Positions 29,006 to 61,989 of a stretch of 64,000 nucleotides of DNA are shown here, in pieces (position 1 is the first letter of the stretch; each line of letters opens with the position of its first letter). A model generated the notes under the pieces. It worked only from the letters and a program-made list of their open reading frames with translations, was not told the DNA's origin and made no database searches. The position numbers and the translations under genes were made by a program. Where the stretch lies: contig OX597815.1 of the NCBI GenBank assembly GCA_951406725.2, forward strand, positions 11,470,001-11,534,000, in the 5' to 3' direction. Source of the DNA: Octopus vulgaris. Its lineage: Eukaryota.

Positions 29006-29769
29006 TGAATCCTTCGCATCATGTTTTTATTTTGATCAATATATATATATATATATATATATATATATATATATATATATATATATATATATTAAAATCA
29101 TAAATTATATGTTATAAAAATTATTACCTTTGAAGGTTATTTTTTCCATGCTGGCCACTTGATAAAATCGTTATTTTATTTTAAATTAACGATCTTATCC
29201 TTATATATATGTGTATGTATATTTATATATATATATGTATGTGTGTGTGTATGTGTGTGCGTGCGTGTGTGTGTGTGTGTGTGTGTGCGTGTCTATTGCC
29301 AGATTACATGGTTCTAAATTCGAATGAAAGGGTCTTATATTTTGTTAGAAACTGGGTACCTGCATTTCAATGAAAAATTCTTAAAATATGATCAGAACGA
29401 CATATATATATGGAGATATCATATCAAACCATACTAACATCAACTTACACCGTGAATCAGGAAATATGCTCTGCACCTTATCAGCAAAACTGTCATCTCA
29501 AAGATGCGACCATAAAGGAGGAGTTCTTTTCTAGTTAGGCTGGATTATCAGAAACATACGAACCTTTTCTCTATACGTGGATGTCAAAGGCCGTTAGACT
29601 CGCTAAAGTTGCAGATATGATAATTCGTCTCCACATTCTACCACTGATAAAATAAAGCGTAGATGAATATATATCTTGACAACATTTTTCTATGTTAATT
29701 TTATTTTCAGAGAAACATCCATTTTTATTGATGAATCTAAAGGATGCGCAAATGCCTAATAAAATTTAT

Positions 29770-29991
29770 TTATTTATTTTTTCTTTCTAGTTTCAGCTCA
29801 GAGCTGCGGCCATGCTGATGCACCGCCGTTTAGAAGAGTACAGCAGGGTTCGCCACCATCCCCTGCCAGAGCCTCGTGGAGCTTTAGGTGTTTTTGCCCA
29901 ATAAACACTCACAACGCCCAGGCGGGGAATCGAACCCGCGTTCCTACGACCGCGAATCCGCTGCCCTAACCACTAGGCCATTGCGCCTCCA
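29770..29991 (-). mobile_element. SINE family C, short form with CR1-derived tail
   Basis: Reverse-complement homologue of 3072-3295. Confidence 0.85.
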
Positions 29992-31068
29992 CATTTGTAG
30001 ATAACTTCAATAAATATATGCAAAATATATCAAAAGATTCAAAACAACTTGGCTACGGCAGTCTTAAAAGCAAGTTGTGTTTTGAGCAGAACAAAATACA
30101 AAAACCACTTCTAAACGAATGGGAAACGAACAGAAAATTTAAGCCCCCAAGAATTTTAACACTACCCGAAATTGCCACAATAATAGTGGTATTAGACACT
30201 TCAGCCTTAGGCGAAAGCGAAGTGCCCAGGTTTTAACATTAATTGTAAATGATTTTCAATATCGAACAGCGGAGTACATTTGTAAACAACTAGCTTCCCT
30301 GGTAGGAATTAAGTGAATAGGGAACTACTGCATCGAAGTAAAAAGAAACGTGAAGATAATTCACTCTGTCTTTATACAATTATACGTGTAATTAGTGGGG
30401 TAACACCTGCCTCACTGCCAATTTCTAGAATCTGAGCTTTATAAAATTCGAAAGGAAACGATGAATCCAGAAATGTCAAGGCTTTAATGGAACTGTCAGT
30501 ACAAAATATATAAAACATTCCAGAATTTAGTAAGTAATGGATAAGTATTGACTTGTGCCGTCATATGGGAGGGAGATTTGGAAATAGGGAAGTGGCGCAA
30601 TTTCATTTTCATATACCTGGCTAATTCCTCGGCGGCCACAAAGAAAAATCTTCCATGTATTTGTAGTTTCAAAAAGCTAGTTTCTCGACTTTAGTTTTTG
30701 TAGTGGCAATCAACTATACGATAAGAAGACAACTCCCGGAGTGTTTAAAGCCTTTAATCTAACAACAAGCATCAAAAAAGTAAGACTAGCTTTCTCAGAA
30801 ATTATTTAGATACATATCTAATTGCACAAGAGCATGCTCATTAAAAAGTGAAAAGCACTGTTGTATTGCTGCTGTTTCTCATGAATGCATTCGCATTTTT
30901 GCTTTTTGACAAGTTTTGTTTTCCTCCAACATGGGTCCAATGAAAACTAGTCGAGTTTGTCGGTTTAGTTCCTGACAGCTCAACTACTTACGTCTGGAAC
31001 AAGTTTAGTTGTTACCTAGCAGCATATTTATGGTTACCAGGCATACATACGTATATTGATACATATAC

Positions 31069-31261
31069 GCCATGATAGATCGTTAGCCACTACACACATT
31101 TTTTCTCTCCTTGTCTTTTTCTGTGTCCCTTTCTGCAGAAGAGCGTAGGCTCGAAACATAAAATACTTTTTCTATTACTGAGCGTTATACTAATACATCT
31201 GTTTGTTTTGTACACCACCTGCCTTCGTCCTTTTGTTTTTTGTTCGTAAACTCTCCCTATA
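31069..31261 (+). mobile_element. H1 pLTR-like element with minimal HHR-like motif
   Basis: ttt CTGCAGA a gagc-gtag-gctc GAAA c ATA aaa at 31130-31163; flanked by an imperfect duplication tatattgatacata / tatactgatacata. Confidence 0.72.
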
Positions 31262-31339
31262 CTGATACATACTTGTTTACATCATACATACATGCATATA
31301 TACACACGCTTTAATTCATACTCAAAAACATGTAAAAAC

Positions 31340-58600: not shown

Positions 58601-59310
58601 CTTATGATTAATTAATGAGGGAATTAAATTGGCGATGAAACTGAACATCACCCAACTACGCACACATGAAGAAAAAGTTAATGAAAACATGATTCCGTTC
58701 GTTAACGCATACAGTCCTGGAATAAACAACATCTTACACACCATAAAATCGAACAGACATATACTCATACAAAATTCCAAAATGAACAAATCTGATTGAA
58801 AAAAACACCTTTCGGAATATAAAACGTTAACCAAGAAGTCTTAAAAAACATCTCAAGAGCAGAATTCAAATCACAGAATAAATTAGAATTCTTAGTAAAA
58901 TAATGTGGGATAGGAGATGTGTAACATGAAACAACATCAACAACTTCAAATACTTGGAAAGTGGTTCCCACATAAAATTCAAGAGCGGATCCCTTTTCAA
59001 AATAAATGCAGTTATGAACGTCAAAACGCAAAAGCTTATATACTGCATTACCTGCCCAAACTGCAAAGTAGATTACATTGGCGAAATAAATAATTCCTTC
59101 TGCCAACGAGCAAGAATCCACAGGCAACACATCCGACAAGAGGAATTACGCAAGATTCCATTAAGTAAGAGTTTGGAAATATGCAGTGATGGAAAATTCA
59201 AAATGTTTCCCTTTTACAAATGTGCACTCCCAAAATTGGATGTTTCAAAGAAAAGCGGAGACAGTACATTTTGTATTCTAAATGTAACTCAAACATCGGA
59301 AACGTAATGC
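55650..59310 (+). mobile_element. Decayed Penelope-like retroelement (Naiad/Neptune-like): upstream ORF, RT and GIY-YIG endonuclease
   Basis: ILKEADEGGAIVIMD, LRPIVAGP, SFDVTNLYTNIPH, MAMGTRFAPSYANLVMG, WKRFLDDC, KRNIPYSMA, LIYCITCPNCKVDYIGE..RARIHRQHI, FKMFPFYK; 35 bp 5' fold-back at the (TA)n junction; many stops and frameshifts. Confidence 0.93.
55760..57065 (+). pseudogene. Upstream ORF region of the Penelope-like element (charged, helical-looking part then basic low-complexity part)
   Basis: ORF 56000-56437 WKKILLNQRKHAYW...LPRKF...LWKEDTKREEEKS and ORF 56715-57065; colinear with and upstream of the RT region. Confidence 0.55.
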
Positions 59311-59384
59311 TCATCTCTGTAAATATTCTGATGTAAATATGTGTGGCATTGAGATGTTCTGAGCTTTGCGTGTTCCTCTAGTTT

Positions 59385-59532
59385 GTCGCCGAGGTCGACT
59401 TTGCCTTTCATCCTTTCGGGGTCGATAAATTAAGTACCAGTTACGCACTGGGGTCGATGTAATCGACTTAATCACTTTGTCTGTCCTTGTTTGTCCCCTC
59501 TATGTTTAGCCCCTTGTGGGCAATAAAGAAAT
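59385..59532 (+). mobile_element. 5'-truncated family B SINE
   Basis: Nin block and long tail. Confidence 0.85.
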
Positions 59533-61142
59533 ATATACTAATGTTCCCTAATGCAAAAACATGAAATTGAAAGAGACGTAATCGAAGTTACACAGTATAA
59601 ACATGGACATGAAATACACACACGCACGCGCACACACTCGCACACATACACACGCGTGCGCGCACGCACAAACACTTCATCAGAGGATTCTCTCCCAAAT
59701 TGAATGTTTGAAGGTAAAGTAGAGAATTTGAATTTTTTATTCTAAATGTGGCTCATCTCTACAAATGTTCAAAGATATACATGTAGCTTGGGGATGTTCC
59801 TGCTCTACGTATATATGTTTTTATGTATACATACATACATACATACATACATATATATATATACCAATTAAGGACTGAACACGAAAAGTGGACAGTCAAC
59901 ATGCTAGATATAGACGTCAAATCGCCATTCTCCACAAAGATTATGTTCTCAAATAAAACTCAGCACAAAACCAAAGCAATAAAGAAGACAAATGAAAATA
60001 TACGAAATAAAATAATTACCCATGTACTGATCAGTTTCGGTTATTATTATCCGCAAGGATAACTGTAATTTCATCAGCATGGTCTGTTATGAATATAATT
60101 TGCTGGACTAGATGCAAAAACGACACCGGAGTGTCTCGTGCATGGAGTTCAACCGATTATATTCGAATGTATTTTTCAAATGCCTTTACTTTGGCGCGCT
60201 GAGGCCCGAAAAATCATATATATATAAATATAGGGTTTTATTTATTTAATTACAAAATATTTAATTTCCAAATATTATACTAATGTTTTTTTCATGCAGA
60301 ACTACATTTCATCCAAAAATTCTCTCTAAAATTGAATATTTGTAAGAAAAGAGGAGACGGTGCATTTTGAATACTAAATATAACTCAAACAGGAGAAAAA
60401 GAAAGAGAGGGGAAAAAGAAGGAAAATGGGAAGAGAAAGCAAAATGAATTTCAGTGATGACCACACCGCACGAGTTTCTTTTTTTTTTTTGAAGGGGTCA
60501 CCGTCCTTAAAACCATTCCAATACAATGGTAAATAAGTAAATGAATAAATGAATAAATTAATGTTGAATAGGAAGGGGTATCACCCTTCTCTCTCTTTTC
60601 CCCTTTTTTCTTTTTTTTTCTTTTCCTTTTTTTGTTCTTTTTTTTTCCTTTATTTTTGTTCTTTTTTCCCTTTTACGATCCCTTTTGATCGAAAACCTAC
60701 GCCACCTTTTTTTTTTCTCCCCGAAAAGAAAAGCTCTACCTTGTAACTTGTCCCATCTGTGTGCAGCCCTGTGTGGCCAATAAAGAAACTTATCATATCT
60801 CTATCTATCTATTTATCTTTCTATCTAACTATCTATCTATCTATCAGTCAGCCTATATACATCCTTACATTTCGATCTATCCATCCCCATTGTCATGGAA
60901 CCTCACCACCAAAAGAAACAAAGACAATATTCTCTTCTAAACAAAACCTCCCCAAAAACATCTGTTTTATATAAATGAACGAGCGTTTTGTACATTCACA
61001 GGGTTTTATTTGACAAGTTCGAGAAACAAAAGAAAGCGCTAATAATAATGATGAAGAAATAAGATATTTTCCAAAATTCTGACGAGCTTTTTGCTCAATA
61101 ATATATATATATATATATATATATATATATATATATGTATAT

Positions 61143-61989
61143 ATTATATAATTAGGGCTTAGTAAAATAAATTATTTTGCCACATACTGAACTTGCTAGA
61201 AATAGCAGCCAAAAAAAGTTTTTTTGCCATTTCCACTACTTAAAGAAAATTTCTCTCAGATAATGTTTACTCAAAATAACTCACGAAGGTATGGAGGTAA
61301 AAACAGAAAAATATCACAAGTACAAAGATTATTTGAGAACGTTAACGTTTCTAGATTAGCCAAATAAACTCAGCATTTCTTTCGTCAGCTCAACATTTCT
61401 TATTTTGGATTTGGAAGCACTAAAAAGAAAGAACATACCCTTTGGCGACTTATCACCTCAGATGACCCGTTCAGACTGCCAGTACCAACAAATTCAAAAT
61501 GTGCAAGCGAAGATTCACTGCTCTCCCCTTCCACCCACGTGGGTTATCTAGCAAACATTATATTTTAACGGTGAGAACCGAGGCAATATGACAGAGAGAA
61601 ATGAATTATATCAACAATTGAGGGTAAAATTAATTAGTCATTAATCAATTTCACCAAGTATTCAGTATGTAAAAGGACCATTTAAGGCGAATTCAAAATA
61701 TTACATTATATAATTAGGGCTTAGTAAAATAAATTACTTTGCCACATACTGAACTTGCTAGAAATAGCAGCCAAAAAAAAGTTTTTTTGCCATTTCCACT
61801 ACTTAAAGAAAATTTCTCTCAGATAATGTTTACTCAAAATAACTCACGAAGGTATGGAGGTAAAAACAGAAAAATATCACAAGTACAAAGATTATTTGAG
61901 AACGTTAACTTTATTTGAGAACGTTACATACTGAATACTTGGTGAAATTGATTAATAACTAATTAATTTTACCCTCAATTGTTGATATA
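61143..61989 (-). mobile_element. HHR element (family H6): ~562 nt partial tandem unit with an inverted 5' arm, inside (TA)n
   Basis: Direct repeat 61143-61346 / 61705-61909; 61924-61989 is the inverse of 61607-61672. Confidence 0.88.
61333..61393 (-). ncRNA. Type I hammerhead ribozyme (H6)
   Basis: Minus strand ttgag CTGACGA aaga...tcta GAAA cgttaacg TT^ ctcaa; palindromic stem III; first stem II pair mismatched. Confidence 0.75.

Follow-up and report, generated by a model that had tools for sequence, protein, structure and literature searches.

We analysed a window of 64,000 nucleotides of Octopus vulgaris DNA (assembly GCA_951406725.2, contig OX597815.1, positions 11,470,001 to 11,534,000 of the forward strand; coordinates below count from its first letter) in which short non-coding repeat units, each built around a hammerhead ribozyme (HHR), end repeatedly in (TA)n tracts just after a hairpin motif. 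The window is AT-rich animal DNA of 35% GC, with 63 TA runs counted and no tRNA genes detected. The motif consists of a leader, CURR followed by five or six nucleotides, a covarying stem closed by a G-C pair, and then CU. In three HHR-bearing families, which we call E47, F1 and E61, it is present twice, as module A and then module B. Our evidence base is this one window, with six motif lineages, and one family, E47, whose monomer (47766-48222) was compared with contigs of four public runs (X1, X2, X8 and X9). The units and their parts are as follows, distances with a plus sign being counted from the closing C of a module.

28790..29205, forward strand: F1 copy 1, reaching from B to B (about one monomer), with a remnant of the B 3' end (28790-28799), an HHR, (TA)27 at 29039-29092, a linker, module B and a TA end.
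28924..29007, forward strand: F1 type I hammerhead, cut site after 29002; a TA break about 36 nt later, with no motif.
29126..29201, forward strand: F1 module B, with mini-hairpin 29126-29137, U-tract, leader 29149-29160, stem 29161-29199 and CT; TA from +3.
36248..36716, forward strand: E36 unit, an old copy of about one monomer, 67% identical to E47; TA end at +8.
Parts of E36, forward strand: decayed HHR at about 36409-36484; A leader 36550-36572 and A stem 36575-36592; decayed B at about 36660-36710.
42625..44033, no strand assigned: E43 fold-back with an HHR on each arm (patterns at 42773 and 43910).
Left end of E43: possible decayed B with an 8-bp stem and TA at +15, but mismatched at three positions that are fixed elsewhere; left out of the counts.
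Right end of E43: 37 nt past the HHR cut, with no motif.
47627..48276, forward strand: E47 fold-back between two (TA)n; the inverted arm (47627-47765) ends after B, the forward arm after A.
47640..47675, reverse strand: E47 module B stem, terminal inverted copy; TA from +15.
47738..47759, reverse strand: E47 module A stem of the inverted arm, 63 nt upstream of B.
47855..47890, forward strand: E47 module B stem, internal, 63 nt after the closing C of A (47792) and 173 nt before the HHR core.
48055..48151, forward strand: E47 type I hammerhead, cut after 48145.
48216..48262, forward strand: E47 module A, terminal, with leader 48216-48238 (23 nt), stem 48239-48260 and CT; TA from +17.
54298..54481, forward strand: F1 copy 2, a short fold-back whose inverted arm reaches 14 nt past A; A stem 54349-54371.
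54435-54465, forward strand: F1 copy 2 module B stem, 64 nt after A; TA from +17; this right end may be internal.
54607..54890, forward strand: HHR-bearing body of F1 copy 2; HHR 54769-54861.
59863..60250, reverse strand: E60 unit, HHR 60021-60085; TA from +10; left edge of the 5' part approximate.
59873-59920, reverse strand: A-type module of E60, with leader 59898-59920 and stem 59873-59897.
61137..61984, reverse strand: E61 fold-back between two (TA)n; the long arm ends after A, the short inverted arm (61924-61984) after B.
61334-61396, reverse strand: E61 HHR; the long arm holds 1.4 monomers of about 562 nt.
61156..61212, reverse strand: E61 module A, terminal, with a second copy at 61718-61774; leader well conserved.
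61623..61655, reverse strand: E61 module B stem, internal, 63 nt after the closing C of A (61718).
61941..61973, forward strand: E61 module B stem, terminal inverted copy; TA from +13.

These elements are tandem retrozymes of the kind without long terminal repeats (non-LTR), and they share their insertion anatomy with Penelope-like elements (PLEs). Type I hammerhead patterns match in F1, E47, E60, E61 and E43 and are decayed in E36; since the Rfam gathering threshold gave 0 matches over the window, the assignment rests on a descriptor and on inspection by eye. At 47.6-48.3 kb Rfam returned only sub-threshold long-hairpin families, caused by the fold-back. Among the variants listed for the E47 family contigs, the single one in the HHR core falls on a free N position (48067). 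Monomers measure about 355-560 nt. The E47 family is abundant and tandem, with a joint from 48222 to 47775 in X1 and X8 and a monomer of about 467 nt, and E61 contains a 200-nt direct repeat spaced 562 nt. No relative turned up among viral contigs. The units code for no protein: no reverse transcriptase (RT) match was found in them, and the open reading frames (ORFs) of at least 100 aa overlapping F1 consist of read-throughs of microsatellites and a single antisense frame of 102 aa. The flanks of the insertions are (TA)n. An inverted, 5'-truncated copy with a one-sided tail occurs in E47, F1 copy 2, E61 and E43, the extension being about 95-110 nt and not 30-40. F1 copy 1 and E36 each cover roughly one monomer, running from B to B as expected of a circular template, while E47 and E61 exceed one monomer, so that multimers or strand displacement would be needed there.

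Animal non-LTR retrozymes are likewise non-coding, AT-rich tandem monomers, each with a type I hammerhead, and PLEs have been proposed as their mobiliser (Cervera and de la Pena 2020, PMC7229834; Li, Clavereau and Pollet 2026, bioRxiv 10.64898/2026.07.22.740005). However, in the portions covered neither paper names a second conserved motif or maps insertion ends, and in PMC7229834 the terms "hairpin", "target site" and "microsatellite" have 0 matches. PLEs share with our units the partial tandems, the head-to-head 5'-truncated inverted copy, the extension at one end only and the microsatellite targets (Arkhipova et al. 2013, PMC3846280; Craig et al. 2021, PMC8557442). They differ in the length of the extension, 30-40 nt there and about 95 nt here, and in that each end here follows a copy of one and the same structured module at fixed spacing.

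An earlier note on this DNA, made from the letters alone, had pointed to five hairpins, four of them ending within about 20 nt of a (TA)n junction. All are present where it placed them, each folds as described (z -3.2 to -5.4 against 200 shuffles), and the first (TA)3 after the closing C begins at +3, +17, +15 and +13, set against a background in which 1.65% of non-microsatellite bases lie within 21 nt upstream of (TA)4 or longer. The hairpins are real and pair beyond chance. A descriptor of leader, hairpin and CT (CTRR, 4-5 nt, T, a G-R-Y stem, CT) gave 7 matches against a mean of 0.475 and a maximum of 2 in 40 block shuffles, an enrichment that is partly circular in that the descriptor was built from the same examples. 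The hairpin without its leader is not enriched (23 matches; mean 15.7, maximum 24 in 15 shuffles), which argues that the leader, not the hairpin, carries the signal. The E60 copy of the motif (59873-59897, reverse strand), which follows the E60 cut site by 128 nt and lies 9 nt away from TA, was seen by eye before the descriptor was written.

The earlier note had further held that the hairpin is shared by unrelated families with no other visible similarity, and here it went too far. The examples at 29 kb and 54 kb are one family, F1, with 78% identity over 153 nt of the HHR part, and therefore its four examples represent three lineages; these three also share an upstream mini-hairpin, a U-tract and a second copy of the motif 63-64 nt upstream. 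Its reading of the hairpin as a cis signal tied to the insertion end is still the best one, but it missed the duplication into A and B at fixed spacing as well as the fold-backs that end in A and in B, besides overstating the unrelatedness.

The spacing of the two modules is nearly constant in these three families. From the closing C of A to the opening G of B there are 63, 64 and 63 nt in E47, F1 and E61, while the bodies of the units are otherwise unalignable (9/10 pairs with p>0.18) and the middles of the A-B linkers are weakly alike (z 0.8-2.5 with the anchors excluded). The leader of A is 23 nt long, and held-out leaders rank within the top 4, 5, 3 and 13 of 127,956 positions; B is preceded by the mini-hairpin and the U-tract, and held-out B leaders rank 5, 30 and 16 of about 128,000 positions. 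In model searches with the B-module model R2, a blind match below significance (E 0.33) abutting TA at 36716 led to E36, an HHR unit that ends after B. It is homologous to E47 (z about 10), with a decayed hammerhead, A and B.

As for the stem, pair 1 is always G-C, and pairs 2-5 are paired in 23/24 cells over the six lineages, with changes on both sides at each pair (types AU/GC, UA/CG/AU, AU/UA/GU and AU/GC respectively), bearing out the earlier note's view that pairing is kept while the stem sequences differ. Only 1/720 arm permutations does as well as the real pairing, and the five B rows are paired in 25/25 cells, compared with 41-75% for slid controls. Since the hairpins had been chosen for their pairing, we also anchored on the leader and C-CT alone. 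Among such anchors 6/7 within 22 nt of TA pair 4/4, as against 3/97 elsewhere, and those three are all internal twins; the comparison is partly circular, in that 4/6 are hairpins of the earlier note and the descriptor was loosened by one letter after A had been seen. In E47 module B, none of the variants among those listed touches the first seven pairs or the CT, and two listed stem changes keep pairing. Stem length varies from 22 to 39 nt. G-U pairs number 11 on the HHR-sense strand and 1 on the antisense strand (8 versus 1 with twins merged, p 0.02), and the module probably acts as RNA on the hammerhead-sense strand.

How do the modules relate to the ends of insertions? Nine outward unit ends of the window run into (TA)n 2-16 nt past a module; counted from the closing C, the (TA)3 begins at +3, +8, +15, +17, +15, +17, +10, +6 and +13. 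Where an end has an internal twin, the last base common to both lies at +15, +21, +16, +13 and +16, with TA microhomology of 1-6 nt, so that a start at +15/16 fits four of the five twinned ends. All three fold-backs with recognisable modules (47.6-48.3 kb, 54.3-54.5 kb and 61.1-62.0 kb) have one A end and one B end, although the end at 54.5 kb may be internal, because F1 resumes past the TA tract. In the public contigs the best-supported E47 loose end into TA among the matches listed is at 47813, just after A (7, 5 and 4 contigs in X1, X9 and X8, that is 3/4 runs), and it had been placed there before A was recognised. The terminal A end of E47 in the window is the equivalent of this main junction of the family, and in X8 one loose end leads out of TA into sequence with no continuation of the unit. 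Contig depth being unable to rank places, the steps in depth after 47813 and 47909 were left aside.

Some details of the fold-backs deserve separate mention. At 47765-47776 and 54320-54340 the copy started from B stops at the leader of A and the fold-back is centred on module A, as though a protein bound at A blocked the other cDNA. At 61900-61923 the long arm of E61 breaks off some 9 nt beyond the position that corresponds to the upstream HHR cut, and a local duplication of 17 nt then precedes the inverted arm; this may reflect a template end or a jump at the ribozyme.

Since most insertions stop 2-16 bases past one copy, the signal likely sets where the RT of a PLE starts copying, and on balance we lean towards the reading that each module positions this enzyme to start about 15 nt downstream. 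The start would likely be primed by a nicked (TA)n strand; the enzyme would bind the unpaired leader and the base of the stem, indifferent to stem length, and a few UA bases downstream would anneal to the nicked target. The two target strands would be primed from A and from B and the two cDNAs joined head to head, which would make the A-to-B interval the PLE "tail" of this group; the A-to-B stretch does behave like a tail, and a long one at about 95 nt. The anatomy points to a Penelope-type RT as the candidate enzyme.

A further step, which we put forward tentatively and consider rather less likely than not to hold in full, is that A and B form a bipartite RNA docking element, in which the modules, at their distance of 63-64 nt, dock the two subunits of a dimeric Penelope-type RT, and each subunit primes from one nicked (TA)n strand. 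If true, such an element would explain the head-to-head fold-back, the one-sided tail (the A-to-B interval) and the borrowing of the enzyme by unrelated retrozymes, and would amount to a portable cassette, about 170 nt long, by which an RNA is licensed for PLE insertion. More generally the finding bears on the choice of internal starts by PLE RTs, on the inverted copy with its one-sided tail and on enzyme recruitment by animal retrozymes. A motif with fixed spacing and a relation to both ends predicts junction peaks, pairing of A and B ends, and starts that move with the module, and it offers a probe for the autonomous partner. Retrozymes as PLE derivatives, fold-backs and tails were already known; the twin module at fixed spacing, found at both ends, appears to be new. 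The literature covered, which leaves most subscription papers, Repbase and Dfam outside, yielded no description of a duplicated fixed-spacing module at both ends, and the portions covered of PMC4209133 and PMC13282606 mention no such motif.

The closest biochemical parallel is that of Frangieh et al. 2024 (PMC11167929), in which a purified PLE, predicted to be a dimer, both nicks and extends the two strands of AT-rich DNA, and in which the RT of the Poseidon element PAc starts at two internal sites, the interval between them being the tail. PAc thus shares with our units two tail-delimiting internal starts, a stem-loop at the start, an AT-rich target, extension of both strands and, by prediction, a dimer; in our units the two starts are seen by genomic proxy only, as A ends and B ends. 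In PAc, however, the starts lie in an AC-rich loop within the ORF and have no target homology (PMC11167929), whereas our elements are non-coding and their ends fall 3' of the stem, within an AU tract that shows TA microhomology of 1-6 nt. The same paper, as far as it was covered, reports no motif common to families. The letters of its Figure S1B read CUGG, 5 nt and then GG opening the start-site stem of PAc, which resembles our leader, with no CU after the stem; this is a weak lead.

The location of the PAc starts speaks against an RT positioned by the modules, and so do several results of our own. The A-B spacing in E36 is 80 nt rather than 63-64, E60 shows a single module, B not being seen, and there is no clear module in E43 or in the HHR-like units at 10.6, 62.7 and 63.2 kb. 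Among the matches listed, X2 has no E47 TA loose end after A, and no TA loose end after B (47895-47911) is found. At 29039 and 44034 there are ends that lack a motif, each some 36 nt past the HHR cut; there is also a break at 54890, and TA tracts also lie inside F1 (29039 and 54482). In E47, two listed stem variants near the loop break pairs, and the leader purine at 47847 is T in part of the family. Lastly, the E61 A module does not fold alone (z +1.2), and the fold of F1 A is weak (z -2.0, 8/200 shuffles).

The search for an autonomous partner falls on the same side. The earlier note had proposed looking for the motif in the 3' untranslated regions of autonomous PLEs, and in Neptune-type loci of other hosts the outcome was negative. 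Over 119 such loci (601,842 nt), the strict descriptor gave 14 matches, 9 of them distinct; none is followed by TA within 21 nt, and one lies in a 3' flank (L086). The best E-value of model R2 on 94/119 loci, 25 near-duplicates being left out, was 0.29, and the best A-leader score in all 119 was 14.7, compared with 26.6-32.1 for members. The motif is thus no general feature of Neptune elements. In these loci 8/30 HHR-like segments reach (TA)4 within 400 nt, six of them at 44-105 nt, after U-rich tracts without the motif. Loose G-A-A-U/A-U-U-C stems in L012, L022 and L027, and looser ones in L002 and L003, were not counted.

Could the modules simply have been inherited? They may have been kept from an ancestral pseudo-long terminal repeat (pLTR) for protein binding, packaging or the folding of circular RNA, with ends clustering through the TA microhomology of the next AU tract and with no ruler at work. 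This is the alternative that survives best, though we think it unlikely. It accounts for the microhomology at every twinned junction and for distances that range from +3 to +17, and it sits well with the homology of E36 and E47, the weak likeness of the linker middles and the existence of motif-free ends. Yet the units are AU-rich throughout and nine outward ends nevertheless follow a module; moreover, at E47 B the microhomology amounts to just 1-2 nt and the end is nonetheless at +14/15, and inheritance does not predict an A end plus a B end in 3/3 fold-backs.

Recognition could instead take place in DNA, the GIY-YIG endonuclease (EN) recognising the modules in element DNA or cDNA and cutting about 15 nt off during resolution to give the tail. 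Craig et al. do ascribe the tail to EN-mediated resolution (PMC8557442), the D. virilis EN needed tail sequence for recognition (cited in PMC11167929), and the unpaired leader is conserved in sequence. We nevertheless regard this as improbable, because the G-U strand bias favours one folded strand, the PAc data place the tail ends at RT starts (PMC11167929), and the stems vary freely in length and sequence.

It is quite doubtful that the A leader is a promoter element of small nuclear RNA (snRNA) or pLTR type, standing at the 3' end and driving the next tandem copy, with the junction near +16 as the transcription start. The conserved 23-nt block and the TATA-like loops 14 nt after the core in E47 and E36 would suit a promoter, and pLTRs do carry promoters (PMC11167929; PMC3846280). 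But E60, E61 and F1 have no TATA-like loop, the invariant 5' half of the fly element PSEA (ATTC-CAA, PMC1761439) is absent, the covarying stems and the B ends go unexplained, and the 5' end of an RNA makes no 3' junction.

Very improbable, too, is that the (TA)n are internal TATA seeds expanded by slippage and the "junctions" no insertion ends at all: TATA-like seeds do follow E47 A and E61 A, and the F1 body does resume past the TA tract at 54607, but the remaining eight ends have no more of the unit beyond the tract, the fold-backs face TA outward at both ends, and the X8 loose end leaves the unit. Helitron-like rolling-circle DNA transposons, with the hairpin as a subterminal DNA signal, are barely credible, for although our units share with Helitrons a hairpin placed 10-16 nt short of the end, the word CTRR and a tandem arrangement, here CTRR is upstream of the stem and not at the terminus, and the ends are AT-rich and variable. 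The intact hammerheads and head-to-head truncated arms are moreover PLE traits (PMC8557442, PMC3846280).

We return to positioning of the RT by the modules, and to where its enzyme might come from. The window has a PLE of its own.

55649..59230, forward strand: decayed autonomous Neptune-type PLE, with RT and GIY-YIG with CxxC, an inverted stub at its 5' end and its 3' end lost.

Having lost its 3' end, this PLE is not shown to be the partner, and Pfam gave 0 families on five short decayed frames. A CAC-C-TA word on the forward arm is followed 17 nt later by the TA in which the inverted stub of this PLE (55649-55737) ends; the stretch is too short to be assessed as a module. Three autonomous PLEs of other hosts (L002 3860-3880, L012 3140-3190 and L003 3030-3048) offer another candidate end signal: they have in common a short word, roughly TATTT-CCG-ACAAGCGAC, located some 90-110 nt past the hammerhead, together with a U-rich loop closed by GGA/UCC.

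Three further observations concern the surroundings. The breaks or TA junctions at 29039, 44034 and 54890 lie 35-37 nt after the HHR cut in two families, with no motif, and are perhaps a third class of start. Decayed hammerhead-like cores without clear A or B are found at 10605-10697 (reverse strand), 62714-62826 (forward) and 63192-63305 (forward). An anonymous repeat is present in three diverged copies (72-84%) at 59227-59295, 59692-59755 and 60304-60391, the first of which truncates the endonuclease frame of the PLE.

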